NCBI GenBank assembly: GCA_963753205.1
Contig: CAVWBL010000009.1
Location: 244,594 to 308,593 of the forward strand
DNA from: an uncultured Acidobacteriota bacterium
GTDB lineage: Bacteria; Acidobacteriota; Terriglobia; Acidiferrales; UBA7541
Length of the DNA: 64,000 nucleotides
Direction: 5' to 3'
The notes beneath the pieces were generated by a model that had not been told where the DNA came from, made no database searches, and saw only the letters and a list, made by a program, of their open reading frames with translations. The translations under genes were made by a program, and so were the position numbers. Below are positions 3,122 to 28,998 of the stretch, piece after piece; position 1 is the stretch's first letter; the number at the start of each line of letters is the position of its first letter.

Positions 3122-3151
3122 TAAAGTATTGTCAATACCATCGTCCAATTG
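3122..3151 (+). promoter_or_regulatory. stress-regulon motif copy 1 (ECF-promoter-like element with palindromic spacer)
   Basis: taaaGTATTGTCAATACCATCGTCCAATTG, 135 nt upstream of ATG 3286. Perfect GTATTG-t-CAATAC palindrome followed by CGTC. Confidence 0.6.
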
Positions 3152-3285
3152 TCCTGCCTACCTCGCGTGCGTTGCAATGAAGTCGCACACAGGCCCCGCT
3201 GTTGAGCTTCGGTAGTGAAAATCGACATGCTCCGCCAGCCGGGCTGATTCGTTCGAGACGCGAGGTCGAAAATGAGGAGACGATC

Positions 3286-4119
3286 ATGAGCACGATTACG
3301 GTGAGAGACGGTACGACAATCTACTACAAGGACTGGGGAAAAGGACAACCCGTTGTTTTCAGCCATGGCTGGCCGCTCAGCGCCGACGCCTGGGAAGACC
3401 AGATGATTTTTCTGGCGGACCACGGATATCGCTGCATCGCCCACGACCGGCGCGGGCACGGCCGGTCGAGCCAACCATCCAACGGCAATGATATGAACAC
3501 CTACGCGGACGACCTATTATCGCTGGTCGACGCGCTCAACGTGAGCGATGCCATTCACGTGGGCCATTCGACGGGCGGCGGTGAAGTCGCGCGGTACATC
3601 GGCCGGCACGGGACAAAGCGTGTCGCTAAGGCCGTTCTTATCAGCGCGGTTCCCCCGTTATTGGTTACCGGCAAGGCCGGTGGTTTGCCAATCGAAGAAT
3701 TTGACCAGCTCCGTGCCGCGATCCTCGCCGACCGCGCTCAATTTTGGAGAGAGTTCAGCAAACCGTTCTATGGCGCCAATCGGCCCGGCGCGAAGGTTTC
3801 TCAAGGCTTGCTCGACTCCTTTTGGCTGCAGGCGATGCTCGGTGGGCATAAAGCCATCTACGAGTGCGTTAAGACTTTTTCGGAGACTGATTTCACCGAG
3901 GACCTCAAGCGGTTCGATGTGCCAACCCTTCTCCTCCACGGCGATGACGATCAGATCGTGCCGATCGGAGTAACAAGCTTGGTTTCGGCCAAAATCATTA
4001 AGGGAGCGACGTTGAAAGTCGTGCCCGGCGCCCCGCACGGCATGTGCTCGACTCTGAAAGATCAGGTCAATGCCGAACTGTTAGCTTTCTTCGAAGGCGC
4101 GGCGGCGGCAGCTGCTTAA
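3286..4119 (+). CDS. alpha/beta hydrolase of the non-heme chloroperoxidase / arylesterase type
   Basis: [39 protein letters not shown], nucleophile elbow GHSTGG, C-terminal GAPHGM. GAGGAG Shine-Dalgarno 7 nt before the ATG. Confidence 0.9.
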
Positions 4120-4206
4120 TAGCTTCGCGATCCGAATGTCATGCACCTGGATCGCTCAAAAATACGGCCGCTGGTCGACCGCACGGCCGAGAGAGGAAGC
4201 AAGAGC

Positions 4207-5004
4207 ATGAAGATCGTAGTGATTGGCGGAACCGGCCTCATCGGTTCAGGAGTCGCAAAGAAGCTCGGCGCGCAGGGCCATCAAGCGGTAGCGGCATCGC
4301 CGGATACGGGCGTCAACACAATCACGGGTCAGGGACTCGCCGAAGTGCTGAAAGGCGCCTCGGTGGTCGTTGATGTATCGAATTCTCCCAATTGGGAGGA
4401 CGCGGCAGTGCTGACCTTCTTCGAAACATCAACTCGTAATCTCCTCAGCGACGAAGCCGCCGCCGGGGTAAGACACCACGTTGCGTTATCGGTTGTGGGA
4501 ACCGACCGGCTTTCCGAAAGCGGGTATTTCCGCGCGAAGATCGCCCAAGAGAGACTAATCAAAGCGGGTTCCATCCCTTACTCCATCGTCCATGCAACCC
4601 AGTTCTTCGAATTCCTTAAAGGGCTTGCCGACATTTCCGTTGAAGGCGGCAAGGTGCATTTGCCACCTGTCCTCTTCCAGCCGATGGCTGCCGATGATGT
4701 GGCGAGCGGAGTAGCCGGTGTTGCTGTCGGGCCGCCGGTAAGTGGCATCGTGGAAATAGCGGGACCAGAACAATTCCGCGTGGATGACCTCGTCCGACGG
4801 CGATTGGCCAGTCTAAGCGATCCCCGCGAAGTTATCGCCGACCCGCACGCGAGATACGATGGCGCGGGGGTCGGCGAGCGAACTTTACTCCCTAGCGATG
4901 ATGCTCGACTCGGCAAAACGCGCTTTGCCGATTGGCTCAAGAGCTCGGCGGCTCAACCACCGAAATCAAAGTCTCAGTCCGCAACCGCAACGAAACGAGC
5001 GTGA
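4207..5004 (+). CDS. NmrA/atypical-SDR-like NAD(P)-binding protein
   Basis: MKIVVIGGTGLIGSGVAKKL Rossmann motif. Length and layout fit NmrA-like proteins. Confidence 0.8.
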   Translation: MKIVVIGGTGLIGSGVAKKLGAQGHQAVAASPDTGVNTITGQGLAEVLKGASVVVDVSNSPNWEDAAVLTFFETSTRNLLSDEAAAGVRHHVALSVVGTDRLSESGYFRAKIAQERLIKAGSIPYSIVHATQFFEFLKGLADISVEGGKVHLPPVLFQPMAADDVASGVAGVAVGPPVSGIVEIAGPEQFRVDDLVRRRLASLSDPREVIADPHARYDGAGVGERTLLPSDDARLGKTRFADWLKSSAAQPPKSKSQSATATKRA

Positions 5005-5096
5005 AGCACGCTCAAACAACGAATTCCATCAATGCGGTGCAAGATCGCCGGGGAATAAACACGATGCATTGATGGTGTCGCACGAGAGGTTGATGT

Positions 5097-5523
5097 ATGA
5101 CGCTTACAAAGCTAATTCTGGTATGGGCGTGTCTCATGTCCGTCACGCTGGCAGCATCGATAGCGGCGGTCACGCAAGGAGCCAACGTGACGCAGGAAGC
5201 GAAGGTGACGCGGCTCTTCTGCGAAAAACCTACCGGACCTTCCTGGCAAGGAAGGGTTGATGATCACGGTTGAGTATCCCCCGGGTGGCTCGGACCCCAT
5301 ACATCGCCACAACGCAGACGCGTTCGTCTACGTACTAGACGGCTCAATCGTGATGCAGGTAAGGGGCGGGAAGCAAGTGGCGCTGACGCCTGGACAAACG
5401 TTCTATGAAGGCCCCGACGATGTCCATATCGTCGGACGGAATGCCAGCGACACCAAACCGGCAAAATTCCTGGTGTTTTTAGTAAAAGACAAGGGCGCTC
5501 CAATCATGGTTCCAGCAAAGTGA
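5097..5523 (+). pseudogene. secreted cupin-domain protein split by a +1 frameshift at an A5 run
   Basis: Frame 0 from ATG 5097 gives a signal peptide, MTLTKLILVWACLMSVTLAASIAAVTQG..VTRLFCEK, and stops at 5271. Frame 1 is open from 5209 and reads NLPDLPGKEGLMITVEYPPGGSDPIHRHNADAFVYVLDGS... to 5523. Removing one A from 5224-5228 joins the two. Confidence 0.65.
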
Positions 5524-5593
5524 CTGCCGAAACCGTCGTCAGGTGGAAAACAACTCAAGAGAACCGCTCGTCTGAGTGGGTGTGGAGGTTGGA

Positions 5594-5857
5594 ATGCTGA
5601 ATCTCCAATCTGGTGATCGAATTGAACTGTTCTACGAAGACGCCCCAGCTGCGCCGATTCGTGCGACCGTCGTCCGCTTGTTGACTGATCAGGATGAAGG
5701 AATGGGCATCGAGATTGAAGACTATACTGCCTCCTGGATCGAGATCACCGTGGATGATCCAAGCGACGTGGATGCCATCCAAGTTGTACTACTGAACACG
5801 GATCTCCAATATCGGCTGAACGGCCGCCGCGTAACTCTTCGTAAGACGGAGGAATAG
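5594..5857 (+). CDS. small hypothetical protein (87 aa)
   Basis: ATG 5594 preceded by GGAGG (5584-5588). Acidic, no recognisable family. Confidence 0.45.
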   Translation: MLNLQSGDRIELFYEDAPAAPIRATVVRLLTDQDEGMGIEIEDYTASWIEITVDDPSDVDAIQVVLLNTDLQYRLNGRRVTLRKTEE

Positions 5858-6028
5858 CGAGTCCTGGCTTCGGGAGCACTCGACACTGATGAGATTGTGC
5901 AAAATGCTTAGCGCGCTTATGAGACCGAGCAGGCCGAAGCGCTCAAAGACGGGTTTAACGGCTAACACAACCATCGAAATGCCGAATGCGACGGATCTTC
6001 TGCGCGTGGTTTAAGGAAAGGAGCAATC

Positions 6029-6733
6029 TTGAATATTGGCATTATCGGCGCGGGTCAGATCGGTGGGACGCTCACGCGCCGGCTGGCACAGTTGGGACAC
6101 GGAGTATTTGTCGCGAACTCCCGAGGGCCTTCGTCCCTTGCGGAATTGGCGAAAGAGACCGGCGCGAAAGCCGTGACGGCTTGCGAGGCCGCCAGGGCAG
6201 GCCAAGTGGTGATCGTGACAATTCCAGAGGGCAAAATCCGAGACCTTCCCAAAAGTCTTTTTGAAGGTGTCCCGTCCGACGTTGTGGTGATTGACACTGG
6301 AAACTACTATCCCCGTGAACGGCATGGCCGCATTGACGACATCGAAGGCGGAATGACAGAAAGCCGTTGGGTTGCGAATCAATTGGGACGTCCCGTCGTC
6401 AAAGCGTTCAACACTATGAATTACAAAAAACTGCTTGAGTTAGGCCGGCCGCAAGGTCCCGGACGCCTCGCCCTACCCGTAGCAGGCGACGACGCCAGGG
6501 CAAAGCAAGTGGTGATGCAGCTGGTTAATGAACTCGGATTTGATGGAGTCGACGACGACGGATTGGACAACTCCTGGCGCCAGCAGCCGGGCACGCCGGT
6601 TTATGATAAGGAACTCGACAGCTCCGAAGTACGGCACGCATTGGCCAAAGCACGAAACGAGCGCCCGCCTCAGTGGCGTGCGGCAAGGAAGATTTCACGC
6701 AGCTTCACGCAACGAGCCTATAGCCGGGATTGA
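6029..6733 (+). CDS. NAD(P)-binding oxidoreductase (NADPH-dependent F420 reductase / ProC-like Rossmann fold)
   Basis: TTG start after AAGGAAAGGAG. MNIGIIGAGQIGGTLTRRLAQLGHGVFVANSRGP. Confidence 0.75.
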   Translation: MNIGIIGAGQIGGTLTRRLAQLGHGVFVANSRGPSSLAELAKETGAKAVTACEAARAGQVVIVTIPEGKIRDLPKSLFEGVPSDVVVIDTGNYYPRERHGRIDDIEGGMTESRWVANQLGRPVVKAFNTMNYKKLLELGRPQGPGRLALPVAGDDARAKQVVMQLVNELGFDGVDDDGLDNSWRQQPGTPVYDKELDSSEVRHALAKARNERPPQWRAARKISRSFTQRAYSRD

Positions 6734-6940
6734 TTGAGGGTTCCTTCCCAAGACGACGATTGCGTTAGCGAGGTTTCGCCCAAACACAATTTTGTCCGAG
6801 TGACTGCAGAACACTCACTTGTACAAGTTAGGCTCCGCGCAATCTAACCGTTGTGGAATGACCCCTGAGCATCCTATCCCTCGCTCTTGGAGAGTAGATG
6901 ATCATCCCGGATTAAAACGGTAGAGGTCCTTGAGATCTGT

Positions 6941-8248
6941 ATGTCTGCACCTCGAGTCGTGATCGTCGGCGGTGGATTCGGCGGGTTGTTCGCAACGCGT
7001 GCGCTCGCTCGCGCTCCAGTGAACGTGGTGTTGATCGACAAGCGGAACTACCACTTGTTTCGTCCCATGCTCTATCAGGTCGCTACCGGTTTGCTCTCGG
7101 CGGATCAGATCGCCCCTCCTTTGCGGTCGATCGTGAGTCGGCCAACACAATGTAGAGGTTTTGCAAGACGAAGTTACCGCGATTGATTCAGCTCACCGGT
7201 TGGTTCAGCTAAAAGAGCATCGGCTACCTTACGATTTCCTGATCCTCGCCACCGGCATTCAATACAACTATTTCGGACATGATGATTGGCGGCGCACCGC
7301 ACCAGGGCTTGAATCACTGGACGATGCAGACCGAATTCGCGGCAAGGTCTTGACGGCCTTCGAGCAGCGGAGGAGACGGCCGCGCTCGATAACCGCGACC
7401 GCCAGGAAATTCGACAGCTGCTGACTTTTGTACTCGTCGGTGCAGGAACGGTTGGCGTGGAAATGGCGGGCACACTCGCCGAAATGTCGCGCATGGCTTT
7501 GACACATGACTTTCGAAATATCAATCCGCGGTCGGCGCGGATTCTGTTGTATGAAGCGGCGCCGCGTATACTTCCTACGTTTCCCGAAGTTTTATCTGCA
7601 AAAGCGCAACGGCACCTCGAAAGGCTTGGGGTCGAAGTATACACAAACACGCGAGTTACTAGCGTAGATGACCGGGGAATCGTCGCCAATGGAAAGCATG
7701 TTCGGGCAAGCACAGTGTTGTGGGGCGCTGGAGTGCTGGCCTCGCCGGCGGCACGCTGGTTAGGTGTTCCAACGGACCAGTCGGGCAAGATCATCGTCAA
7801 CGCCGACTTCTCAGTGCCGGGTTATCCGGAGATTTTTGCGATCGGCGACACCGCACACGTCGTAGCGGGATCTCGCAATCTCCTGGGATTTAAGTCGAAG
7901 CAGGCAATGACCATGCCGGGTGTCGCACAACCAGCGATTCAAGAGGGGCAGTATGTAGCACGGTTGATTCGCCGGCGAGTTGCCAAGAAACCAGCACCGC
8001 CGCCTTTCTGGTATTGGGACAAGGGTGACCTCGCAATCGTCGGTCGAGCTTACGCCCTGGCCGACTTACGTTTCCTTCGGTTCGCAGGATTGCTGGCTTG
8101 GATCGTTTGGGGCGCTGTGCATATCTACTTTTTGATCGGATTTTCAAATCGACTCTTCGTCGTGCTGGAATGGGGGATCACATTTTTGACCAAGCGGAGG
8201 CAGGTGCGCGTTTTCCCGGGACAAGAAAAAGCGGAACGAGCGCCCTGA
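6941..8248 (+). pseudogene. ndh: type II NADH dehydrogenase (NDH-2) interrupted by two compensating frameshifts
   Basis: Frame 2: [18 protein letters not shown]...[24 protein letters not shown]. Frame 0, open from 7137: [23 protein letters not shown]...IRGKVLTAFEQ. Frame 2 again, open from 7313: AEETAALDNRDRQEIRQLLTFVLVGAGTVGVEMAG...FAIGD... to 8248. Confidence 0.8.
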
Positions 8249-8327
8249 GAACGCTACGCCAAAGACACGCAGTTTTCATGTCGCTCTCAAGCGAAGAATC
8301 GCACCATTTCCTTGCCGTCTCCGCTAC

Positions 8328-8357
8328 CAAAGTACTGCCAATACCATCGTCTGATTG
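8328..8357 (+). promoter_or_regulatory. stress-regulon motif copy 2
   Basis: caaaGTACTGCCAATACCATCGTCTGATTG, 89 nt upstream of ATG 8447. Second block CCTAATCG lies 22 nt downstream. Confidence 0.55.
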
Positions 8358-8446
8358 TTCCGTCACGCTTCCTCTGGCCTAATCGCAAACGTAAATCAAC
8401 CGGATTAGTCGTCCAACAACCGATATCACATGTAGAGGTAAGGTAA

Positions 8447-8860
8447 ATGAACGCGCTCTTTGTCGGCGAGAGTCAACGAGCCTGGTGGCACATCGCCAGG
8501 CATCTGCAAGGACGAGGCTGTAGTTGTTGGTTCGCCTCCACAAACGAGGAACTCCGAGTTCTTCTCGGCCAGCGGCCGTTCCGTTTGGTGCTGAGTGCAC
8601 GCCCTGTGACGAACGGGAGTGCGCTCATGCACCTACTGCAGGCTCCTGAGCGGTTCGTGTTCTACTGGTTCCCCGTCGAGGATAGCTGTCTGTGGTTTCA
8701 AGCTATTCCCGAAATTTCAAATGTTTCGCGGGTATCAGCACTTCGACCGAGCGAGTTCATGAGCATTCTCGACGTTCTCCTTGTTTCAGAGGGAGACCGT
8801 TATCCTCGTCGTTTCGAAGCAACGCCTATGCCAGGTGCAGGTCCATTTGGACTATCTTGA
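8447..8860 (+). CDS. hypothetical protein (137 aa)
   Basis: First ORF after motif copy 2. No family recognised. Coding status inferred from position only. Confidence 0.4.
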   Translation: MNALFVGESQRAWWHIARHLQGRGCSCWFASTNEELRVLLGQRPFRLVLSARPVTNGSALMHLLQAPERFVFYWFPVEDSCLWFQAIPEISNVSRVSALRPSEFMSILDVLLVSEGDRYPRRFEATPMPGAGPFGLS

Positions 8861-8954
8861 TCTGGATTAAATTAGCGTCGAACTCGATGTCGAGGGTCGG
8901 AACGGTACTGTTCGTGAACCGATTGTCCACGCTGCTGCTGCGGGAAATTAGCCG

Positions 8955-9863: not shown

Positions 9864-9990
9864 AATCCCAATACGCCTCGAATCGTTCCGAGAGTCGCAT
9901 GAAAGAGAAGCGCGACTATCGTGATCACGGGATCAATTAGAGAGACACGACGACGAAGCCGGTACATCAGAAGAAAAAGGAGTCACTGTC

Positions 9991-12576: not shown

Positions 12577-12806
12577 GCGCTTCCCGATTTATGAATGCAA
12601 GGGCGGGTCTTCAGTCTTCATCCAAAAGTTCTGCCGGCCGGTCGGCTGGATTGTGCTGCTCATACAGGCCGCTCGAAGCTGCTAAGTCCCGCCCAAACTC
12701 TTTACGCTAACCTGCCGAGTTCAAGCTCGCCATAAGAAACTTCTAACTTTTCTTTGACGTTTCTTTTCCGCCCCTCAAACTGGCGCTTGATCTTGGTCGC
12801 TGACAC

Positions 12807-12836
12807 GAAAGTATCTCCGATACCATAGTCTAATTG
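12807..12836 (+). promoter_or_regulatory. stress-regulon motif copy 3
   Basis: gaaaGTATCTCCGATACCATAGTCTAATTG, 91 nt upstream of ATG 12928. CTTAATCG lies 22 nt downstream. Confidence 0.55.
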
Positions 12837-12927
12837 CTTCATTCCGCTTGCCGGTGCTTAATCGTAACCGTGCGGTCTTGCTCGGAGTGCTGTTACGCAA
12901 CGTTTTTTAACTGGGAGGAGGGCAGAA

Positions 12928-20604: not shown

Positions 20605-20716
20605 ACTTGTTCTCCTTTTCATCTTCGTGCTTGGTTGGTTTCGCCTTTAAAACGCCAAACCAATTTTTGGCTTTTCCTCGGTGGACGGGAGTTGCGACTC
20701 CCACCTCAGCTCGTTT

Positions 20717-21142
20717 CTAAAATTCTTCGTATTCGTTGAATTTTTCCTCGCGTTGCCCGTGTTTGCGGCGCCTGGTCGCCGCGGCTCTGGCGGCAGCCTT
20801 CTCTAGCACGCGGTGCTCGCGCTTTGTCTCAACGCCTTCGGCAGCGTTCTCTTTCTGGTGCTGCTGTGCATGAACGCCGAATTGATGCCAATATGTCTCG
20901 GGGAGATCCATTTCGTAATGCCGCGCGGCCTTTTCGATATTTGCCAACGCTAAAGCTCGATCTCTGTCCGGCACGCCCAAGACCTGATCGAATCTTGCAA
21001 TCGCGTTGCGCACGTGCTGTGCGTCCGTCAGGGGCTCCTTCCTCTGGTGAGGAAAAGCGAAGACCGTGTCAGGTAAATCGCTCCGCATTGAGAGGCGACC
21101 GTGTTTCTCGTGAGGTTCCCAAGTTGGCCGTACCGTGCTCAT
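20717..21142 (-). CDS. conserved hypothetical protein (DUF6582-like, from memory)
   Basis: MSTVRPTWEPHEK...FAFPHQRKEPLTDAQHVRNAIARFDQV. GGGAGA Shine-Dalgarno before ATG 21142. First gene downstream of the minus-strand motif at 21316. Confidence 0.6.
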   Translation of the reverse strand: MSTVRPTWEPHEKHGRLSMRSDLPDTVFAFPHQRKEPLTDAQHVRNAIARFDQVLGVPDRDRALALANIEKAARHYEMDLPETYWHQFGVHAQQHQKENAAEGVETKREHRVLEKAAARAAATRRRKHGQREEKFNEYEEF

Positions 21143-21315
21143 TTTGTTCTCCCTCTGCCCTCGTCTGCGCAGCGTTCGGTTGCCTGCTTTATCTCCCGGA
21201 ACCGCCGCCACATACTTGCCGCTTGGCTGCGGCCTCGAACGTCGGTTCCTTAGATCGGGTAATTCCCAATATCCCGTGGAACACCAGTCATCACATCAAA
21301 CGCGAGGGAGGTGCA

Positions 21316-21345
21316 CAATTGGACGAAGGTATTGGCGATACGTTC
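21316..21345 (-). promoter_or_regulatory. stress-regulon motif copy (minus strand)
   Basis: The reverse complement reads gaacGTATCGCCAATACCTTCGTCCAATTG, a clean GAAC-N16-CGTC. It lies 173 nt upstream of ATG 21142. Confidence 0.55.
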
Positions 21346-21373
21346 GCGTAATCGGCGGCTACCCATCTTGCTC

Positions 21374-21402
21374 CCAAGTGGTGCAATACCTTCGCGCAAA
21401 TG
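21374..21402 (+). promoter_or_regulatory. degenerate motif copy facing the aldolase pseudogene
   Basis: ccaaGTGGTGCAATACCTTCGCGCAAATG keeps CAATACC, TCG and CAAnTG, but the left half-site and CGTC are eroded. Confidence 0.3.
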
Positions 21403-21424
21403 CGCCGCTGTCGCATTTCTGACC

Positions 21425-21760
21425 CAATCGAAACCGATTCATACTCGTGCAGGGCCTACGTGGCGCGTTTGGCGTCCCTGTTTTCTTGAACGCTGGCCAC
21501 ACGCACTCGTTGCCTAGCGCGATAAAAGCGCCTAAGCCAGGGTTCGATTGTGCCTGTTCGACGTCTCGAACCTCCCATTCGACAAGAATGTCCAACGGAC
21601 AAGTCGGTTGTCGACGCTTTGAAGAGTCTGCGACCCGGCACTCCCGTCGAAGCGAAATCGGAGACACTGGCGGCCGATCCGTGCCGTATAAGACTCTTTT
21701 GCAAGTCGACGATTGAATTGAAAGAGTTGTCGCGAGCGATTGCAGCTATTTAGCGAAGGG
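21425..21760 (+). pseudogene. 5'-truncated, multiply frameshifted fragment of a class II fructose-bisphosphate aldolase paralog
   Basis: Three frames together read LVQGLRGAFGVPVFLNAGHTHSLPSAIKAPKPGFD / LFDVSNLPFDKNVQRT / KSVVDALKSLRPGTPVEA. The intact gene at 23517-24413 reads LVKVMRKEHGAPVFLNADHTHSLAKAVEAARAGFDAVVIDFSALPFDQNVSRTKEAVEAIKAINPAILAE. Confidence 0.6.
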
Positions 21761-21927
21761 CTCCAACGCGGGCGGCTTCGGTATAGAAATCCGGGCGAGA
21801 TCAGAAGCGAAGCGACTGAGAAAGCCTCGAACCCGCTGCGGCGACGATTCCGGTTGTTCAGCGCGTCCACAATGAGTTCTTACGCTGAAGGTCCGGGTGG
21901 GGAGGCATCTTGGTTCGCCACCTAAAC

Positions 21928-21957
21928 AAAAGTATCGGCGATACCATCGTGCAATCG
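21928..21957 (+). promoter_or_regulatory. stress-regulon motif copy 4
   Basis: aaaaGTATCGGCGATACCATCGTGCAATCG, with a perfect GTATCG-g-CGATAC palindrome. It lies 106 nt upstream of ATG 22064. CTTAACTG is 22 nt downstream. Confidence 0.55.
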
Positions 21958-22063
21958 ATTCCTCTACGTGCTACGGGCTTAACTGCGACCGTGCACCAGG
22001 CACAAACCAATCGGAATTGCGCTGAAGCCCAACTTTAACGAATGGTGCTTAGGAGACGTCATC

Positions 22064-22560
22064 ATGGCGCTGCAAAGCTTATTGAATACAACCCAGCCGG
22101 TCGCTCCATGCGTGCGCGGCGGAGTGTCGATGCGAGTGAGACGCGAGGGGGCAAGTGGCTTCGCCCAAGATGCGAAATACGATGTGGCTGCTCGCGGCGG
22201 TGCGAGCGCATTCGCCGAAACGAAACTCGTACCCGCGGCGAAGAAGGGAAATGAAACCGCCTTTCGGGAGCTGGTAGAAAACCACAAAGGGCGTATTTAC
22301 CCTCAGGCTTTTCGCATCGTGGGAATTCGGAGGACGCTGAGGACGTCCGTCAGTCGACGCCAACTGCCCACTTGGGAATCGATCGCGAGACGGCGATCGC
22401 GAAAGCCGAGAACAGGAACTTTCGCTGGCACGCGAGGATTATTTCGCTGGATAGGCGCTTAGCCGAGGATGGCGATGACAGCAACGCGTATAATTACCTC
22501 ACCTCTGTTCGGTCTCGGACATGGCACGGCGTCGATCACAATCGCGCTCGGCGGGCCTAA
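22064..22560 (+). pseudogene. remnant of an ECF-type sigma-70 factor (frameshifted, region 4 missing)
   Basis: LVPAAKKGNETAFRELVENHKGRIYPQAFRIVG, then after a shift near 22321-22335 NSEDAEDVRQ...ISLDRRLAEDGDD. No region 4 HTH before the stop. It abuts the 3' end of the convergent reductase gene. Confidence 0.55.
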
Positions 22561-22614
22561 ATGATGGATTCTTCCGGCTTTCATTCTCACTCCCGCAGGG
22601 CTAGCACGCGCGTG

Positions 22615-23520: not shown

Positions 23521-24413
23521 GATTTCTCTCCTTCGGTGAGGGCCATCAGTTGGCCATTGAACAGCTTCAGGCGTGAACTCACGACTTGCTTCACGGATTC
23601 GACGACCGGGGGCAGAATCTTATATGGAACGACTTCGTTCGGTTGACTCGCCAGGCTGCCTTCCAAGGACCGGCGCCATGCGACCCGCAGTTCGGTATTG
23701 ATGTGGATTATGTTGATCCCTGCAGTGATCGCCCTTAGAAAGTCTTCATCATCCGTTCCGGACCCACCGTGAAGGGTGAGAAAGATCCCAGTAGCCTTCT
23801 TGATCTGGGCGATTCTCTCGATCTTTAGGTGCTTTTTGGTTTTTCCTTCGACCATGCTTTCCAGCATGCCGTGCATGTTGCCGACCGCTGGCGCAAGGAC
23901 GTCGATTCCAGTGGAGGCGACGAATTGTCGGGCTTCCTCAGGTGTCGTGAGGTTCCGAAAACCGTTTGGAACGGCTTGATGGATTTCAGAGCCGGTTCCG
24001 ATGTTGCCTATCTCTCCCTCCGCAAGAATTGCGGGGTTGATCGCTTTAATGGCCTCAACAGCTTCCTTCGTGCGAGAAACGTTCTGGTCAAAAGGTAACG
24101 CTGAAAAATCGATTACGACTGCATCGAACCCTGCCCTTGCCGCCTCCACTGCTTTCGCCAGTGAATGCGTATGGTCTGCGTTAAGGAAAACGGGGGCGCC
24201 ATGTTCCTTCCGCATGACTTTCACAAGCGCTGTGATTTCATACGTTCCTAGAAAGTCCCGCTCTCCTTCCGATGCGCCTACAATTACCGGAACTCTGACC
24301 TCAACAGCGGCTGCGACAACTGCCTTTAGCAGAACCAGATCGGCAACATTGAAATGGCCCAGCGCCGAGCGCTGTTCTTGCGAACGAATCAACACATTCC
24401 GTAATGCATCCAT
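23517..24413 (-). CDS. fba: class II fructose/ketose-bisphosphate aldolase
   Basis: ALGHFNV, VPVIVGASEG, FLNADHTHS, LTLHGGSG, NINTELRVAWR. Confidence 0.9.
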   Translation of the reverse strand: MDALRNVLIRSQEQRSALGHFNVADLVLLKAVVAAAVEVRVPVIVGASEGERDFLGTYEITALVKVMRKEHGAPVFLNADHTHSLAKAVEAARAGFDAVVIDFSALPFDQNVSRTKEAVEAIKAINPAILAEGEIGNIGTGSEIHQAVPNGFRNLTTPEEARQFVASTGIDVLAPAVGNMHGMLESMVEGKTKKHLKIERIAQIKKATGIFLTLHGGSGTDDEDFLRAITAGINIIHINTELRVAWRRSLEGSLASQPNEVVPYKILPPVVESVKQVVSSRLKLFNGQLMALTEGEKS

Positions 24414-24555
24414 GATCGTGGTCCTTCCATGATGACGAGTGCGAGGCGTCGCAGAGGGCGCTTCCCATTCCTCGTCGCCCTCGGGCGAATCGGCCTACAT
24501 TCGTCCGATCGAATCGCGTGCCACCGGCGATTTCACTCCACGTGCCCGGGCGAAG

Positions 24556-24585
24556 CAATTGGACGATAGTATTGGCGATATGTTT
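24556..24585 (-). promoter_or_regulatory. stress-regulon motif copy (minus strand, faces fba)
   Basis: The reverse complement reads aaacATATCGCCAATACTATCGTCCAATTG. It lies 142 nt upstream of ATG 24413. Confidence 0.55.
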
Positions 24586-24643
24586 GTATGGGTCACACAG
24601 ATCGAAGTACACACCACCTGAGCCTACGGGATCGATCCGCGCT

Positions 24644-24673
24644 TTGGCGGTGGTCGATACGTTCGTCCAATAG
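24644..24673 (+). promoter_or_regulatory. stress-regulon motif copy (plus strand, left half-site eroded)
   Basis: ttggcggtgGTCGATACGTTCGTCCAATAG, 336 nt upstream of ATG 25010. It forms a divergent pair with 24556-24585. Confidence 0.4.
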
Positions 24674-25009
24674 ACTTGTCGTCGCCCTTCTGCCAATCTC
24701 GCCTCCGACGGTAACTCGCTCTGCCATCGAAAGGACTCCGAATGGACGGCAAAAAATGGACCGAAACAGACCACGCGCGTGGCCGAGCCTGTCGCCTTGG
24801 ACACGCTTGGTGTGAATGTTTTTACCGGCCGGGAATGGGTATGGCGGCGAGGCAGTCAGCTTTGACTCGATCAAGTCGAAATCTCCGGTAAGTATGACGC
24901 GATGCTGGTAGACGCAATGATGAGGTAGCTGAGGCCGAGGCTCTCGCAAATTGTTTTGCACAAGCTAGGGTCTCGGGAAACAGATTCGGTTTTTCGAGAG
25001 GAGAACAAG

Positions 25010-25846
25010 ATGACAACAAAAGGGAAAGTCTTGGTGCTAGTCTCGAGCGGTCACGGCTTGCCATTGAAAGACGGCAAGGTTTATGCCGGCGCTGGCTACT
25101 ATCTCAACGAACTGACCGTCCCGGTTCGTGCCTTGATGAAGGAAGGCTATGAGATCACTTTCGCGAACCCTAAAGGCAACACGCCGCAAATGGATGTCCA
25201 TTCAGCCGTCGCCGACTTCTTCGGCGGTGACGAGGCCAGGCTTCAGGACTATCTAAAATTCCGGGACAGCCTGACCGGGCTCAAAAATCCAACTCGCATA
25301 TCGGATGTGATCGCATCGGGCCTGGATCAATATGACGCCGTTTTCGTCCCCGGCGGCCATGGCCCGATGATGGATCTTCTCGATGATCCCGACGCCGGCA
25401 CCGTGATGAGATACTTTCATAAAATATCCAAGCCCACGGCGGTGCTCTGCCATGGCCCGATTTCACTTCTCTCAGCTCTTCCGAATTCCACGGAGGTGGT
25501 CGGAGCGCTGGCAGCGGGCGATGCCGCTGGAGCGCGGGCAAAGGCTCAAGGATGGATTTACGCCGGATATAAGATGACCATCTTTTCGACGGCGGAAGAG
25601 CAGCAGCGGGAGCCGCTCGAAATTGGCGGCAAGGTTCTCTTCTATCCGGACTTCGCCTTGCGTACAGCGGGCGGTGACGTAAGTGTTGCCGCTCCATGGA
25701 AGAGCTACGTGCTGCAAGACCGCGAGTTGATCTCAGGTCAAAATCCGTTCTCGGACGATGCGCTTGTGAAACTTCTTCTACCGGCCCTCAGCGGAAAAAG
25801 TGCGGGGGCAAGCGCATCCTCCGCCGGATCGAGCGTTCGTCGCTAA
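25010..25846 (+). CDS. DJ-1/PfpI-family (class I glutamine amidotransferase-like) protein
   Basis: KVLVLVSSGHGLP...YDAVFVPGGHGPMMDL...AVLCHGPISL. GAGAGGAGAA before the ATG. Confidence 0.85.
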   Translation: MTTKGKVLVLVSSGHGLPLKDGKVYAGAGYYLNELTVPVRALMKEGYEITFANPKGNTPQMDVHSAVADFFGGDEARLQDYLKFRDSLTGLKNPTRISDVIASGLDQYDAVFVPGGHGPMMDLLDDPDAGTVMRYFHKISKPTAVLCHGPISLLSALPNSTEVVGALAAGDAAGARAKAQGWIYAGYKMTIFSTAEEQQREPLEIGGKVLFYPDFALRTAGGDVSVAAPWKSYVLQDRELISGQNPFSDDALVKLLLPALSGKSAGASASSAGSSVRR

Positions 25847-25860
25847 CTGCGTGGAGCTGC

Positions 25861-25895
25861 CCCACCCATCATACTTTTCGATCTCGATGGGTGGG
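25861..25895 (+). terminator. stem-loop 15 nt after the DJ-1-family stop codon
   Basis: CCCACCCATC-(15 nt)-GATGGGTGGG, a 10-bp perfect stem. No T-tract follows, so intrinsic-terminator status is uncertain. Confidence 0.35.
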
Positions 25896-26056
25896 AGGAC
25901 GGGAACGCGGCCTCACTTTCGAAAGGGCTATGCCGTGCTGTCTGGGCGGAAGTGCCGTCCACCCTTCGGCCCGCAACCTTCGATTTCCGCTGAGGGCAGT
26001 CTGTGGTCGGCGCCCTCGCTTCGCATTGGCCTTCGGGCGCAAGGAGAGAATGTTCG

Positions 26057-26935
26057 ATGAACTACCCCGCCGCTTATCGCACCCTGCAGATCGACGGCCT
26101 CTCGATTTTCTACCGAGAGGCTGGGCCTAAAAATGCTCCGGCAATTCTCCTACTGCACGGACTTCCTTCTTCGTCGCGGATGTTTGAACCGCTCTTCGCG
26201 AGACTCTCCGATCGCTATCATCTGATGGCGCCTGATTATCCAGGTTTCGGACACAGCGACTGGCCCGACCCGAAGAAGTTCGCATACACCTTCGATAATT
26301 ACGCCGAGATCATAAGCCACTTCACTGAGGCGCTCGGCGTCTCGCGTTACACGCTTTACATGCAGGATTATGGCGGCCCCGTGGGTTTTCGCATGATCCT
26401 GGCGCACCCGCAACGGGTGGAAGCTCTCATTGTTCAAGACGCGGTGGCACACAATGAGGGCCTGGGCGTGAATTGGAAGACGCGGCGAGCCTTTTGGGCT
26501 GACCGCGCGACCAATGAAAGTGCGCTGCGCGCGAATTTGCTCTCGCTCGCCGCGACGCGCACTCGACATGTCGGCAACGATCCGAACGTGGGACGCTACG
26601 ACCCCGATCTCTGGATGGATGAATTCTATTTTCTGAATCAGCCAGGCCAGGCCGAGATTCAGAGCGATCTCTTCTACGACTATCGAACCAATGTAGACGC
26701 CTACCCGAAGTGGCAAGCGTGGATGCGTGAGAAGCAACCACGGCTGCTGGTGATCTGGGGCAAATATGAGCTTTCGTTCGACCCTGGCGAGCCGGAACGC
26801 TATCGCGCAGACGTGCCGAGTGCTGAGGTCCACATCGTCGACGGCGGCCATTTCGCGCTAGACACGGCGGCAGATGAGATCGTCGCACTTTTACAGGGAT
26901 TTATCCGCTCTTCACGCGAGGCGGTCGTACGGTGA
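26057..26935 (+). CDS. alpha/beta hydrolase (epoxide hydrolase / haloalkane dehalogenase-like)
   Basis: IDGLSIFYREAGPKNAPAILLLHGLPSSSRMF, MQDYGGPVGF, C-terminal GGHFAL. AAGGAGAG before the ATG. Confidence 0.9.
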   Translation: MNYPAAYRTLQIDGLSIFYREAGPKNAPAILLLHGLPSSSRMFEPLFARLSDRYHLMAPDYPGFGHSDWPDPKKFAYTFDNYAEIISHFTEALGVSRYTLYMQDYGGPVGFRMILAHPQRVEALIVQDAVAHNEGLGVNWKTRRAFWADRATNESALRANLLSLAATRTRHVGNDPNVGRYDPDLWMDEFYFLNQPGQAEIQSDLFYDYRTNVDAYPKWQAWMREKQPRLLVIWGKYELSFDPGEPERYRADVPSAEVHIVDGGHFALDTAADEIVALLQGFIRSSREAVVR

Positions 26936-27249
26936 GCGGGATGAAGCTGCTTTGGCAAGGCCGCTAACCCGGCTGTGTGTCGGGTTGGCATCTTCAGCAC
27001 GGAAGATTATGCATATCGCCGGGAAGGCAGCGAAGGTTAGCCGGCGCATCGGAGGGCATTAGCGCGGAGCATGACCGGTGCAAAGGTCGCACGTGGTACC
27101 GCGGTACCGCGAATCCCCACTGAGCAAAAGGCCGAACGCCGTTCTTCCAGAGCGGTAGCTCCGGTTCATTCTCGCCCTAGTGCGAATGGCTCTCCGTCCG
27201 TCCGATCAGCCCGCCATGAGCGACTCCAATCCACGTGCCCCCGGCGAAT

Positions 27250-27279
27250 CAATCGGACGATAGCATTGACGATGCGTTT
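27250..27279 (-). promoter_or_regulatory. stress-regulon motif copy (minus strand, orphan: no gene downstream)
   Basis: The reverse complement reads aaacGCATCGTCAATGCTATCGTCCGATTG, with half-sites co-varied to GCATCG/CAATGC. The leader 27170-27249 is homologous to the fba leader (24440-24555) but is followed only by short ORFs. Confidence 0.45.
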
Positions 27280-27338
27280 GTGCGGGTCCCGCAGATCGAA
27301 GTACACATCACTCGTTGCCTATATGTCTGATCCGTTCT

Positions 27339-27368
27339 TTGGCGGCGGTCGATACGTTCGTCCAATAG
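27339..27368 (+). promoter_or_regulatory. stress-regulon motif copy (plus strand)
   Basis: ttggcggcgGTCGATACGTTCGTCCAATAG, 142 nt upstream of ATG 27511. CCTAATCG lies 23 nt downstream. Confidence 0.5.
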
Positions 27369-27510
27369 AATTCGCCATCGCGACTCTGGCCTAATCGGGT
27401 CCAGATGAACGCTGAGATCTCGCGTGTCTCCGATCGAGCGGACCCCTGACTCCCGGACGAAGCGTCTTAGTCGGCAGGAGCACGCCCCAAATGGAAGGGA
27501 CTGACCACCC

Positions 27511-28884
27511 ATGAAGGACTTCGACGCAATCATTATTGGAACGGGCCAAGCGGGTCCGCCGATGGCAGTTCGGTTTGCGGATGCCGGAAAGACCGTCGCC
27601 ATCATCGAACGCCGTAAATTTGGCGGCACATGCGTGAACACGGGATGTACCCCGACAAAGACGCTCGTGGCTAGCGCCTATGCCATTCATTGTGCCTCCC
27701 GAGGTGCCGAATACGGTTTCTCCATCGGTGATATGCGCGTTGATATGAAGCAAGTCAAAGCCCGCAAGGATGAAGTCTCCGGTGGGTCAAGTAGGGGAGT
27801 GGAGGAATGGCTGCGAGGAACGGCAAATTGTAGGGTCATTCAGGGTCACGCCCGCTTTCAGTCATCGAACACTGTGATGGTCAACGGTGAAGTTCTGCAA
27901 GCCGACAATATCTTTATCAACGTGGGCGGACGCGCCTCGGTTCCGGAAATCCCCGGGATTCACGATGTACCATTTCTCACCAACTCATCGATTATGGACA
28001 TCGACTTCTTGCCCGAGCATTTCGTTATCGTCGGCGGAAGTTATGTCGGGCTCGAGTTTGCCCAGATGTATAGGCGCTTCGGCAGCCAAGTTACGATCGT
28101 GGAGATGGGGCCGCGCTTGATTGGAGGGGAGGACGAAGACGTTTCCCAAGGTGTGCGCGAAATCCTGGAGGCCGAGGGAATACACATCCGGCTGAATGCG
28201 AAATGTGTCTCACTGGCGAAACGCGATGGCGGTGTCGCCGTCGGTGTCACGTGCGAGGAAGGGTCGCCAGAAGTGATGGGCACTCACGTTCTTCTCGCCG
28301 TGGGACGTACTCCCAACACGGGCGACTTGGGTCTGGACCGGGCCGGCGTCGCCACCGATCACCGCGGCTACATAATCGTTGATGATCAATTGCAAACGAA
28401 CGTGCCCGGCATCTGGGCTCTAGGGGACTGCAACGGCCGCGGCGCGTTTACGCATACTGCTTATAACGACTACGAGATCGTTGCGGACAATCTCTTCAAC
28501 GCCGACCATCGCCGGGTTTCGGATCGGATCCAGGCTTACGCGCTGTATATCGACCCGCCGCTGGGGCGATGCGGCATGACCGATGCTGAGATACGGAAGT
28601 CCGGACGTCGTGCCCTCGCCGTGAAATATCCGATGAGCCGAGTGGGCCGGGCGTACGAAAAAGGTGAGACACAAGGTTTCATCAAAATCTGTGTCGATGC
28701 GGAAACGAAACAAATTCTGGGTGCTGCGATTCTTGGGGTGGGAGGCGATGAGGTGATTCACGTTCTGCTGGACGTGATGTATGCCAAGGCGCCATACACC
28801 GTCATACAGCGCGCCATGCACATCCATCCGACGGTCGCGGAATTTCTACCGACCATCCTCGCCAAACTGGAGCCGATTGCGTAA
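27511..28884 (+). CDS. class I pyridine nucleotide-disulfide oxidoreductase (flavoprotein disulfide reductase; MerA-like core without metal-binding extras)
   Basis: FDAIIIGTGQAGPP, redox-active GGTCVNTGCTPTK, second Rossmann VIVGGSYVGLEFA, HIHPTVAE near the C-terminus. No N-terminal HMA domain and no C-terminal Cys pair. Confidence 0.88.
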   Translation: MKDFDAIIIGTGQAGPPMAVRFADAGKTVAIIERRKFGGTCVNTGCTPTKTLVASAYAIHCASRGAEYGFSIGDMRVDMKQVKARKDEVSGGSSRGVEEWLRGTANCRVIQGHARFQSSNTVMVNGEVLQADNIFINVGGRASVPEIPGIHDVPFLTNSSIMDIDFLPEHFVIVGGSYVGLEFAQMYRRFGSQVTIVEMGPRLIGGEDEDVSQGVREILEAEGIHIRLNAKCVSLAKRDGGVAVGVTCEEGSPEVMGTHVLLAVGRTPNTGDLGLDRAGVATDHRGYIIVDDQLQTNVPGIWALGDCNGRGAFTHTAYNDYEIVADNLFNADHRRVSDRIQAYALYIDPPLGRCGMTDAEIRKSGRRALAVKYPMSRVGRAYEKGETQGFIKICVDAETKQILGAAILGVGGDEVIHVLLDVMYAKAPYTVIQRAMHIHPTVAEFLPTILAKLEPIA

Positions 28885-28969
28885 TCGCCCGCAAGACGAT
28901 CGCTCTGAAGCCCGAGAAGAGTGCGTGCGTATCAAGAAGCGCGGGCTGAGCAGCACTTCAAGCTGATAC

Positions 28970-28998
28970 CAACGTATCCCAATACCATCGTCCAATTG
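28970..28998 (+). promoter_or_regulatory. stress-regulon motif copy 5
   Basis: caacGTATCCCAATACCATCGTCCAATTG (spacer 1 nt shorter), 85 nt upstream of ATG 29084. Confidence 0.55.

Follow-up and report, generated by a model that had tools for sequence, protein, structure and literature searches.

Response regulators of the StyR/TodT type recognise the sequence ATAAAC-N4-GTTTAT (PMC5874301), and the activating StyR site is found at about -40 (PMC2442086). FixJ footprints at fixK span positions -69 to -44 and -57 to -31 (PMC4999443). The window analysed here, a stretch of 64,000 nt from an uncultured Acidobacteriota bacterium, carries a kinase, a receiver and a regulator gene related to these systems (44-2981), directly upstream of a region that bears multiple copies of a conserved element.

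Two-component genes and copies of the element in the window

44..1888, plus strand: FixL-like sensor histidine kinase, PAS-PAS-HisKA-HATPase (Pfam); candidate sensor of the system
1902..2303, plus strand: single-domain receiver protein (Pfam Response_reg), between kinase and regulator
2313..2981, plus strand: StyR/FixJ-family response regulator, REC and GerE HTH domains (PDB); proposed reader of boxes D and P of the element

The kinase scores 311 bits on the NCBIfam FixL model, which is below the cutoff, and its PDB matches are the FixL kinase core and heme-PAS domain. The counterparts of the proximal heme ligand His200 and of Arg206 of FixL are conserved in its PAS domain, but Arg220, which FixL needs for O2 discrimination, is replaced by Thr, a difference that counts against the model favoured below. 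The best NCBIfam match of the receiver protein is the FixJ receiver; its FixT-like position hints at its role, orthologues are present in motif loci from other genomes, and its true start probably lies downstream of the listed TTG. Among solved structures, StyR is nearest to the regulator (1yio, E = 2.5e-55; FixJ 5xso, E = 1.5e-46).

Offsets within the element are counted from an anchor, C0, the C of CRATAC (offset 0). The copies in the window are the following, with gene assignments from Pfam:

3116..3177, plus strand, C0 = 3133: 47 bits on the position weight matrix (PWM); upstream of an alpha/beta hydrolase (3202-4119) and an NmrA-like protein (4141-5004)
8322..8383, plus strand, C0 = 8339: PWM 63 bits; upstream of a 137-aa ORF (8447), a tandem USP (8955) and phosphoketolase (9991)
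12801..12862, plus strand, C0 = 12818: PWM 50 bits; upstream of DUF2934 (12928), M50-CBS protease, USP, P-type ATPase and GlgX-like genes (to 19787)
21290..21351, minus strand, C0 = 21334: PWM 58 bits; upstream of DUF6582 (21211-20717) and YflT-like (20622-20062) genes
21367..21428, plus strand, C0 = 21384: degenerate copy, PWM 11.6 bits; upstream of an 89-aa ORF (21447)
21922..21983, plus strand, C0 = 21939: PWM 49 bits; upstream of ORF 22064-22462
24530..24591, minus strand, C0 = 24574: PWM 58 bits; upstream of class II aldolase (24413-23517) and Zn-ADH-like (23520-22615) genes
24638..24699, plus strand, C0 = 24655: subtype-2 copy, PWM 19 bits, CAATAG, no AA; upstream of DJ-1-like (24956) and alpha/beta hydrolase (26003) genes
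27224..27285, minus strand, C0 = 27268: PWM 33 bits; no clear downstream ORF; paralogue of the C0 24574 copy
27333..27394, plus strand, C0 = 27350: subtype-2 copy, pattern match with 3 mismatches; upstream of a pyridine-nucleotide-disulfide oxidoreductase (27511-28884)
28963..29024, plus strand, C0 = 28980: PWM 39 bits; upstream of EgtB (29084), EgtD (30214) and a cupin protein (31392)

The presence of the element is far above chance. A search of the window with a 14-mer pattern, allowing up to three mismatches, returned 17 matches against 4.8 expected, a number reached in none of 100 shuffles. The 62-column PWM gave 10 matches above 10 bits, and no match above 8 bits was seen in 20 shuffles. 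All 11 copies fall within the 26 kb adjoining the two-component operon and none in the remaining 35 kb; the PWM scan of the window at 29-64 kb returned no match to the element. The copy at C0 27350 is under the PWM cut but agrees with the subtype-2 consensus. The degenerate copy at C0 21384 stands back-to-back with that at C0 21334 and retains a recognisable box P and downstream block, and in the copy at C0 28980 the spacing between the two boxes is shorter by 1 nt. Alignment shows the divergent intergenic regions at 24.5 and 27.3 kb to be paralogous duplicates, so that their copies are incompletely independent.

These results confirm the observation of the first-pass annotation: the 11 positions it reported (3122, 8328, 12807, 21374, 21928, 24644, 27339 and 28970 on the plus strand; 21316, 24556 and 27250 on the minus strand) were all recovered, and its start-codon distances of 85, 89, 91, 106 and 142 nt were reproduced as distances to the first ORF. 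The claim that every copy points at the adjacent gene holds for 10 of the 11, the exception being 27268 on the minus strand.

Anatomy, conservation and placement of the element

The full element comprises about 62 bases, against some 30 nt described previously, and reaches further upstream, to a GATAC arm. It consists of box D (CGATAC-N4-GTATCG, offsets -17 to -2), box P (CGATAC-CATC-GTCCAA, offsets 0 to 15), the trinucleotide T(T/A)G abutting box P at offsets 16-18, and, at a fixed spacing of 17 (+/-1) nt from the latter, a TG-containing block, TTCTGG-YNTRAT, at offsets 33-44. The CTAATCG block previously noted in four copies exists as part of this last block, which is carried at a fixed distance by nearly all copies. 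In a logo built from 143 instances, sequence information drops to zero outside -20 to +45.

Conservation in both boxes peaks at the inner AC and GT. Among 85 sites found without a search pattern, box P retains A4 in 81, C5 in 83, G10 in 85 and T11 in 83, while the outer bases of CGTC vary more (C9 64/85, C12 71/85); near-invariance within CGTC is thus confined to GT, the mirror of AC in the left arm. Of 232 sites, 132 match the box D arms at 7 or more of 8 positions, and presence of one arm goes with presence of the other. In a second subtype TTTG takes the place of AA: AA is missing from 38 of 42 such sites, although the ATAC/GTAT arms of the palindrome are retained. At offset -16, the centre of box D can read either way (SAAR or YTTS), which a dimer site tolerates and a -35 element does not. 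The suspicion of a dimeric DNA-binding protein is thereby supported. The halves of the palindrome had also been said to change together; across about 150 instances they do not, C/T at -3 and G/A at +1 being independent (Fisher p = 0.80, odds ratio 1.2). GTCCAAT, the right half of box P, is highly conserved without being palindromic, pointing to a constraint other than that of a symmetric dimer, which counts against the model favoured below.

The element is conserved across Terriglobia, a class of soil bacteria, in at least 108 other loci; the comparison set comprises about 108 loci with the motif, each 8 kb long, fetched by DNA pattern alone. Sites are intergenic in 77% of 232 cases, against 26% of random positions, and are followed by an ORF starting downstream on the same strand in 75%, against 32%. 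The proposal of an oriented, intergenic, regulon-defining promoter-region element is borne out by these biases. We conclude that the element is most likely an undescribed operator, with its regulon, of a known regulatory kind.

Candidate readers of the element

We assign a probability of about 0.58 to the explanation that each copy is a composite activator-dependent promoter, with boxes D and P read by the adjacent StyR/FixJ-type regulator, rather than a plain ECF promoter. The boxes would be tandem 16-bp operators, with centres 17-18 bp apart, for dimers of the regulator, which the FixL-like heme-PAS kinase would phosphorylate and whose phosphorylation by the kinase the receiver protein may modulate. 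T(T/A)G would act as a -35-like element and TCTGG-YNTRAT, 17 (+/-1) nt on, as an extended -10-like element. The strongest new evidence suggesting that the regulator reads the element is genomic linkage. Orthologues of the regulator (73-83% identity) occur in about 20 of the roughly 108 motif loci, where chance alone would give about 0.1-0.2 such loci for a gene present once per genome of about 6 Mb; the regulator gene is often divergent from a motif copy, and about 15 motif loci hold orthologues of the kinase (52-74% identity). Against this, a regulon member could lie next to the element just as its regulator does, and the centre of box D in subtype 1 is xAAx in a single orientation in 93 of 93 sites, which also fits a directional -35 element.

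Just 9 of 232 sites carry A at '-11' of the -10-like block, and a standard sigma-70 scan rejected every copy in the window, whereas two Terriglobia tRNA promoters look canonical; the housekeeping sigma factor may therefore not be the reader. ECF involvement is possible. A SigW/SigM/RpoE-like gene family (ECF-A) lies downstream of the motif in all seven loci that carry it, directly in four (L069, L049, L051, L055) and as the second gene in three (L088, L040, L038). This is the classic signature of ECF autoregulation and counts against the two-box regulator model. The window itself contains a single ECF-like ORF:

22064..22462, plus strand: truncated ECF-like ORF, of which the N-terminal part alone matches the ECF family that follows the motif

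Residues 46-86 of this ORF share 54% identity with the L040 ECF; the likeness then resumes in a different frame with NSEDAEDVRQ, and no sigma-like sequence lies past these residues. It matches SigW weakly (E = 1.5e-4), and a similar truncated ORF is carried by locus L028. By its sequence it is possibly an ECF remnant or a small ECF-derived protein.

A hybrid arrangement, in which the response regulator binds D and P and the co-localised ECF-A sigma reads the promoter proper, appears unlikely, if the most credible of the alternatives. RpoE has the consensus GGAACTT-N16-TCTGA, and the hybrid geometry would be RpoE-like: CCAAT(T/A)G as -35, TCTGG some 15 nt later as -10, and a start near the conserved A at +43. 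The position of ECF-A behind the motif suits this arrangement, and no anti-sigma gene was found adjoining ECF-A in the motif loci, so that its activity would be set by transcription. ECF-A scores 106-108 bits on the RpoE model (L069, L088), below the curated cutoff, with SigW and SigM scoring higher; a non-housekeeping sigma would also explain the conserved, non-palindromic GTCCAATWG and the avoidance of A at '-11'. ECF sigmas, however, lack region 3, which makes the conserved TG two bases ahead of the hexamer unexpected, and the best-kept bases of the block (A43 91%, T44 80%) would sit at the start site and not in the -10. Identity among ECF-A members of different lineages is just 32-47%, against near-invariance of the motif, and the window holds ten good copies with only the truncated ORF to serve them, though another ECF copy in the genome is possible.

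Still more doubtful is a plain ECF promoter along the lines of the first-pass annotation, with AA(C/A/G) as -35, 16 nt, CGTC as -10, a start about 7 nt after CGTC and palindromes that are incidental or a superimposed operator, read by ECF-A. SigW/SigM-like ECFs typically use xxAAC-N16-CGTx; ECF-A, whose genes the motif precedes, resembles SigW/SigM, and the AA-N17-CGTC geometry is found in 124 of 190 sites outside subtype 2 and in 8 of 11 window copies. Yet an AAC -35 is not general, the third base being G in 70 and A in 47 of 143 sites, and the subtype-2 sites keep their arms without AA. The assignment is weakened further by the supposed 16-nt spacer, which is better conserved than the putative hexamers and is the most conserved part, and by the variable outer bases of CGTC. 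It leaves unexplained CCAATWG and the fixed-distance block at 33-44, which would fall between -10 and start or within the transcript, whose leader carries no structure signal. The idea of a transcribed RNA element, a DNA hairpin or cruciform, or a dispersed mobile repeat is very improbable and already largely refuted. Two window copies do lie within duplicated intergenic segments, and folding of the motif region is a little more stable than that of shuffles (mean z = -0.9), the latter because the boxes are palindromic; but the leader fold has z of about 0, the stem shows no compensatory change, and nested covarying pairs looked for downstream of the element were not found. Rfam returned no known RNA, either at the gathering threshold or at E <= 1, the flanks past -20 and +45 are uninformative, in disagreement with a mobile repeat, and the intergenic and orientation biases are strong.

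Genes served, possible signal and likeness to StyR and FixJ

The element precedes about 10 operons in the window and many stress and detoxification genes across Terriglobia. Pfam agrees with the gene labels given earlier (USPs, DUF2934, YflT, phosphoketolase, GlgX-like, class II aldolase, DJ-1, alpha/beta hydrolases, EgtB/EgtD), and the suggested stress- or dormancy-type regulon is plausible. It would comprise USPs, phosphoketolase, aldolase and ADH, glycogen debranching and a P-type ATPase, together with cytochrome P460, HbpS-like protein, DJ-1, glyoxalase, epoxide and alpha/beta hydrolases, and ergothioneine synthesis. In 12 other loci the motif is followed first by DUF6582, and in three others it is followed by EgtB.

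Under the two-box regulator model, a signal sensed by the kinase would lead the regulator to switch on this dispersed regulon, and the ECF sigma gene found in the regulon of other genomes would act as a second tier. The signal would probably be a heme ligand or redox state (O2 limitation, NO or CO), as the conserved proximal heme His of the PAS domain suggests. In Acidobacterium capsulatum, an O2 downshift raises a sensor kinase 84-fold and a USP 56-fold (PMC11636273), a response that would fit such a signal if these genes are orthologous to those of the window and carry the motif.

The boxes of the element and those of StyR/TodT-type regulators have the AC-N4-GT geometry in common, and the recognition helix of the window regulator (TVKAHRGQVMQKM) is nearly identical to that of StyR (TVKVHRHNIMQKL). 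The 17-bp centre-to-centre spacing would put two dimers on different faces of the helix, which counts against tandem binding. If TCTGG-YNTRAT is the -10 element, transcription would start about 51 nt after C0, and the centres of the boxes would then fall near -60 and -43, where FixJ and StyR also act.

Copies, anatomy and distribution of the element

The core 14-mer, with three mismatches allowed, matches the window at 17 sites where 4.8 would be expected; no shuffle gave as many. Extraction of these matches recovered every position and strand reported in the first-pass annotation, whose gene labels are likewise upheld by Pfam. A 62-column weight matrix yields 10 window matches above 10 bits, with none above 8 bits in 20 shuffles. 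The copies are positioned here by C0, the C of CRATAC, which serves as position 0 of the element.

Strong (n = 8) and weaker (n = 3) copies of the element, by window position of C0
3133, plus strand, strong copy
8339, plus strand, strong copy
12818, plus strand, strong copy
21334, minus strand, strong copy
21939, plus strand, strong copy
24574, minus strand, strong copy
27268, minus strand, strong copy
28980, plus strand, strong copy
21384, plus strand, weaker copy
24655, plus strand, weaker copy
27350, plus strand, weaker copy

Duplication accounts for the paralogous divergent intergenic regions that hold the copies at 24.5 kb and at 27.3 kb. Behind the minus-strand copy at 27268 no ORF is evident: this copy drives about 300 nt without a convincing ORF (window 26935-27285), followed by the 3' end of a convergent hydrolase gene, and paralogy with the aldolase leader at 24.4-24.5 kb extends over the first ~90 nt. 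This copy could represent an orphan promoter, or belong to a small RNA or a small protein. A matrix scan of the 35 kb of the window past 29 kb returned no element match. In that part, a short way outside the regulon island, 34196-39916 resembles an islet of toxin-antitoxin or defence type (a DUF4172-Fic protein, a PNKP-ligase-domain protein, a Y-family DNA polymerase and an HTH plus Fic/Doc pair), and two very long minus-strand ORFs of 1314 and 1724 aa lie at 46741-55652. Inside the latter are antisense ORFs of equal size, 286 aa each (47353-48213 and 51090-51950), a hint that these giant proteins contain large internal repeats.

The logo of 143 instances among the matches listed reads C G A T A C c A A g G T A T C G c at positions -17 to -1, C R A T A C C A T C G T C C A A T T G at 0 to 18, T T T at 19-21 and T T C T G G Y N T R A T at 33-44; the sequence information is zero beyond -20..+45. 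Two 16-bp boxes of the same design are apparent, namely box D, CGATAC-N4-GTATCG, centred at -9.5, and box P, CGATAC-CATC-GTCCAA, centred at +7.5. The block at 33-44 keeps a constant distance of 17 (+/-1) nt from the TTG. It corresponds to the downstream 'CCTAATCG' of the first-pass annotation, which was correct about the block itself but limited it to four copies, while nearly all copies have it. The core is unbiased in the 85 listed sites that the matrix alone found, since these do not satisfy the pattern used for the search. The near-invariant bases in these 85 sites are those of the inner AC (81/85 and 83/85) and GT (85/85 and 83/85) of box P; C9 and C12 of CGTC are more variable (64/85 and 71/85).

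A variant, subtype 2, accounts for 42 of the 232 sites among the matches listed, including the window copies at 24655 and 27350, and has the sequence CATAC-TTTG-GTATCGGT-CGATACGTTCGTCCAATAG-ATTCGTC...TTCTGGCCTAAT. Both arms of box D are kept around a centre of TTTG, not CAAG, box D is one base more distant, and TAG replaces TTG. Across loci, the distance of box D (position -16 or -15) co-varies with the -35-like triplet at +17: among the matches listed, box D is found at offset -16 in 15/15 TAG sites with a scorable box D, and at -15 in 91 of 96 TTG sites with an adjacent box D. In one locus from another genome (L086, 1500-1640), a receiver-regulator operon begins about 100 nt from a divergent element copy that has no adjacent box D. 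A D-like palindrome, GTACC-TT-GGTAT, lies about 45 nt upstream instead and may serve the divergent regulator promoter, which would lead to autoregulation.

An exact scan with CRATACYWTCGTCYRATTG, using one genome per species, returned at least 119 loci. Among the matches listed, nearly all of them belong to Terriglobia (Acidobacteriaceae, Terracidiphilus, Sulfotelmatobacter, Acidoferrales, Korobacteraceae), 108 of the 119 loci contain at least one matrix match, and 63 of those 108 contain two or more within 8 kb. The 232 sites listed display the bias in position and orientation implied by the first-pass annotation: 77% fall between genes (26% for random positions), and a same-strand ORF begins downstream of 75% (32% for random positions).

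First genes downstream of the element (n = 134, among the matches listed)
Cytochrome P460, 13/134
Alpha/beta hydrolases, 12/134
DUF6582, 12/134
HbpS-like, 9/134
DJ-1/ThiJ, 7/134
Enoyl-CoA hydratase, 6/134
Beta-carbonic-anhydrase-like, 6/134
SDR, 5/134
DUF4331, 4/134
Glyoxalase, 4/134
Epoxide hydrolase, 3/134
EgtB, 3/134
Zn-ADH, 3/134
RidA, 3/134

These first genes belong to many unrelated families, and the element is therefore a regulon signal and not a repeat. The regulon combines hypoxia/dormancy-type functions (USPs, an M50-CBS protease, a P-type ATPase, phosphoketolase, aldolase, ADH and glycogen debranching) with defence against NO, electrophiles and oxidants (cytochrome P460, HbpS-like proteins, DJ-1, glyoxalase, epoxide hydrolase and ergothioneine synthesis). 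A Verrucomicrobiia-binned locus, possibly mis-binned, contains a motif-driven cytochrome P460 adjoining phosphoketolase. Three sites in Paraburkholderia isolates (L003 2218+ and 5281-; L020 3121+) display box P, CAATTG and TGTGGC(G/C)TAAT at the same spacing, lack box D, and are found near a LysR regulator, a PEP-mutase-like gene and a porin; they may be members of this promoter class beyond Acidobacteria, or fortuitous matches. A literature search found no description of the element in Acidobacteria; it is a genuine and strongly conserved cis-regulatory element of Terriglobia, and apparently an undescribed one.

It is extremely unlikely that the element acts as an RNA element, a DNA hairpin or a mobile repeat. 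The palindrome halves had been reported to change together, yet the C/T alternation at -3 and the G/A alternation at +1 are independent (Fisher p = 0.80), which leaves a hairpin or a strict dyad compensation unsupported. No Rfam family, Acido-1 and Acido-Lenti-1 included, matches anywhere in the 64 kb at the gathering threshold, nor does any match within 2900-29300 at E <= 1. Scanned for pairing register by register, +15..+75 showed neither a helix nor nested covarying pairs, and the folding energies of the putative leaders equal those of shuffles. Hairpins seen by eye in some leaders did not generalise. A dispersed mobile repeat is rejected because the flanks carry no information beyond -20..+45, apart from one local duplication.

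The two-component operon as candidate reader

A three-gene operon lies immediately upstream of the first copy of the element.

Genes of the two-component operon
44-1888, PAS-PAS-HisKA kinase, first gene of the operon
1902-2303, single receiver protein, between the kinase and regulator genes
2313-2981, REC-GerE regulator, third gene of the operon

We favour the reading of the element as an operator-promoter for this adjacent StyR/FixJ-family response regulator, with putative binding to the boxes, and assign it a probability of about 0.58. For the regulator as the probable reader of the element, the decisive observation is linkage. Among the matches listed, regulator orthologues of 73-83% identity occur in about 20 of the ~108 motif loci and the kinase in about 15; these loci are arbitrary 8-kb pieces fetched by DNA pattern only, and the chance expectation for a single-copy gene is ~0.1-0.2 such loci. 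In the motif loci listed, the regulator is frequently transcribed divergently from an element copy. In a Woeseia-binned locus, possibly mis-binned, the regulator (76% identity) neighbours epoxide hydrolases that are motif-driven. In metagenomes the regulator family comprises at least 7997 clusters at E <= 1e-60.

The nearest solved homologues of the regulator are StyR (E = 2.5e-55) and FixJ (E = 1.5e-46). Boxes D and P are 16-bp inverted repeats with an inner AC-N4-GT, as in the StyR/TodT boxes, and regulators of the StyR/TodT type recognise ATAAAC-N4-GTTTAT (PMC5874301). The recognition helix, TVKAHRGQVMQKM, is near-identical overall to that of StyR, TVKVHRHNIMQKL; it carries V176A and H179G, with two of the three proposed StyR DNA-contact residues changed (contacts from PMC5874301). 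The difference of the outer half-site from that of StyR/TodT matches these two substitutions. Read as an operator-promoter of the regulator, the system is a conventional one and not of a conceptually new kind.

The signal might be a gas or a redox state. The first PAS domain of the kinase aligns with the FixL heme domain, conserving the equivalents of the proximal His200 and of Arg206 and having Thr in place of Arg220; the NCBIfam FixL match scores 311 bits against a cutoff of 850. Judged by these residues, a heme-based gas or redox sensor is plausible. In Acidobacterium capsulatum, a shift of O2 from 10 to 0.1 uM raises the expression of a sensor kinase 84-fold and of one USP 56-fold (PMC11636273). 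The link of these nanoxia-induced genes (ACP_1638, ACP_1576) to the element is circumstantial, and a literature search found no other mention of the two tags.

Almost nothing is known, to our knowledge, about transcriptional regulation in Terriglobia, though they are among the most abundant soil bacteria. The element provides a near-invariant marker for a class-wide regulon that spans USPs, central-carbon rerouting, cytochrome P460, detoxification by DJ-1, glyoxalase and epoxide hydrolase, and ergothioneine. It names a candidate sensor, regulator and second-tier sigma factor, permits regulon prediction in uncultured MAGs, and makes the physiology that underlies the persistence of Acidobacteria under O2 fluctuation or nitrosative/electrophile stress directly testable.

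The putative promoter block and its candidate sigma factors

The first-pass annotation interpreted the element as an ECF promoter, an interpretation that holds for part of the sites and that we consider improbable as a full account. The AAC-N16-CGTC reading does fit the geometry of most subtype-1 copies, with CGTC at the right distance from the supposed -35. As a general description, the ECF promoter fails for several reasons: the third base of AAC is G in 70/143 and A in 47/143 of the instances listed, 38 of the 42 listed subtype-2 sites lack AA, the supposed spacer is the most conserved segment, and both CCAATWG and the constant-distance block at 33-44 are left unexplained. A conserved -35 with an AAC core was not found, AA being conserved in subtype 1 only, and within CGTC the GT alone is near-invariant.

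ECF sigma factors are nevertheless associated with the element. Related genes of one family, ECF-A, were found in 7 loci among the matches listed, with PRK11922, SigM, SigW and RpoE as the best NCBIfam matches, all below cutoff. In each of the seven the element precedes the ECF-A gene, which comes first after it in 4 and second in 3. No anti-sigma gene was found beside the ECF-A genes, and no PhyR/NepR-type partners nearby. The two-component system might drive an ECF factor without an anti-sigma, a cascade for which CseBC-SigE and BvgAS-BtrS are precedents; alternatively, the ECF factor would read part of the element and autoregulate. A hybrid, in which the response regulator occupies the same boxes and the promoter is read by an ECF factor, appears unlikely.

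A motif-driven window ORF of 132 aa (22064-22462) has only its N-terminal ~40 residues in common with ECF-A; the next ECF-like residues, NSEDAEDVRQ, lie in another frame (shift near 22320), with no sigma-like sequence beyond. A similarly truncated ORF in another locus (L028 6645-7079, minus strand) is 49% identical over 77 aa, so the window ORF may encode a small conserved protein of ECF origin instead of being a decayed gene. A second ECF family occurs a few kb from element copies (L063 3498-4832, L025 3735-5198, L068 7055-8002); its members have ~440 aa, a large C-terminal extension and 82-88% mutual identity.

Under the favoured operator-promoter reading, the block at 33-44 would contain the -10. 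If YNTRAT at 39-44 were the -10, it would be an extended one (T-17, T-15, G-14, Y-12, T-10, R-9, A-8, T-7), TTG occupying -35..-33 and the spacer measuring 17 nt. The predicted start would then fall at about +51, and the boxes would consequently be centred at about -60 and -43. FixJ at fixK protects -69..-31 (PMC4999443), which is where boxes D and P would lie given this start; the site through which StyR activates is at about -40 (PMC5874301, PMC2442086). Among the 232 sites listed, T-7 is present in 80%, TG at -15/-14 in 71/78%, and A-11 in 9/232 (4%). The corresponding position +40 (e.g. window 8379, 12858) has a background of ~22% A, against the 4% in these sites; A at '-11' is actively avoided, not merely unconserved.

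A standard sigma-70 scan matches none of the copies, and the element does not conform to the canonical promoter (TTGACA-N16-18-TATAAT, A at -11, T at -7). Among the fetched loci, two tRNA promoters of Terriglobia have a canonical appearance (TTGACG-N17-TATCAT); the 64-kb window has no tRNA genes, and with just two usable tRNA promoters the housekeeping baseline is weak. Inspection by eye discarded sigma-54, there being no GC 12 nt after GG in the downstream block, and sigma-28, which GCCGATAA does not fit.

The highly conserved yet non-palindromic GTCCAATWG calls for a reader besides a symmetric dimer. Tentatively, and against the odds in our estimate, GTCCAATWG and the block without A-11 may define a promoter class requiring both a non-housekeeping sigma factor and a bound FixJ/StyR-type regulator, a class-wide two-component-plus-sigma 'AND gate', whose sigma could be the anti-sigma-less ECF driven by the element itself. 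If true, an obligatory 'AND gate' would control a heme-gas (O2/NO) stress regulon throughout the class, in one of the most abundant groups of soil bacteria. The element is of value to soil microbiology and readily tested; it would be conceptually new only if the promoter block defines such a regulator-dependent alternative-sigma class.

Comparison with known systems

ECF promoters have the form AAC-N16-CGTx in the SigW/SigM type and GGAAC-N16-CGTT in the EcfG general stress response. The element resembles them in the AA-N17-CGTC geometry of most subtype-1 copies, in a stress-type regulon and in the ECF gene downstream in the 7 loci listed. It differs from them in the unconserved C of the -35, in a spacer that exceeds the hexamers in conservation, in the missing -35 of subtype 2, in the additional downstream block at constant distance, and in having no anti-sigma or PhyR/NepR-type partners near.

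The promoters of StyS/StyR and TodS/TodT (PstyA and PtodX of Pseudomonas) likewise have several boxes, with an activating box near -40, as would be the case here if YNTRAT is the -10. The TodT spacer is presumably CATC, identical to that of box P. The outer half-site is CGATAC here and ATAAAC in StyR/TodT; the boxes are adjacent here and 20-50 bp apart there; a single catabolic operon is controlled there and a dispersed stress regulon is predicted here. The kinase is short and FixL-like, in contrast to the double-type TodS/StyS.

With FixL/FixJ of Alphaproteobacteria (fixK, nifA) the system shares a kinase with a heme-PAS domain, predicted here, that conserves the proximal His, a REC-GerE regulator and a nearby small receiver gene in a position like that of FixT. 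FixJ promoters have CSNAATWT near -33 (PMC4999443), comparable to CCAATWG here. However, the FixJ sites GTAMGTAG and TAAGTAATTTCCCTTA are unlike the GATAC boxes, FixJ has few direct targets and acts via FixK whereas dozens of candidate direct targets are found here, the NCBIfam scores are below the FixL/FixJ cutoffs, and Arg220 is not conserved.

DosS/DosT-DosR of Mycobacterium also pairs a heme sensor kinase, the heme being predicted here, with a GerE-type regulator. The DosR regulon has a similar gene content, in which USPs, an M50-CBS protease, a CtpF-like P-type ATPase and enzymes of glycolysis and fermentation are prominent and cluster near the regulator. The sensor domain is GAF in DosS/DosT and PAS here, and the DosR operator is a 20-bp site of the GGGACT-N-AGTCCC type; the likeness is an analogy across phyla, not a homology of sites.
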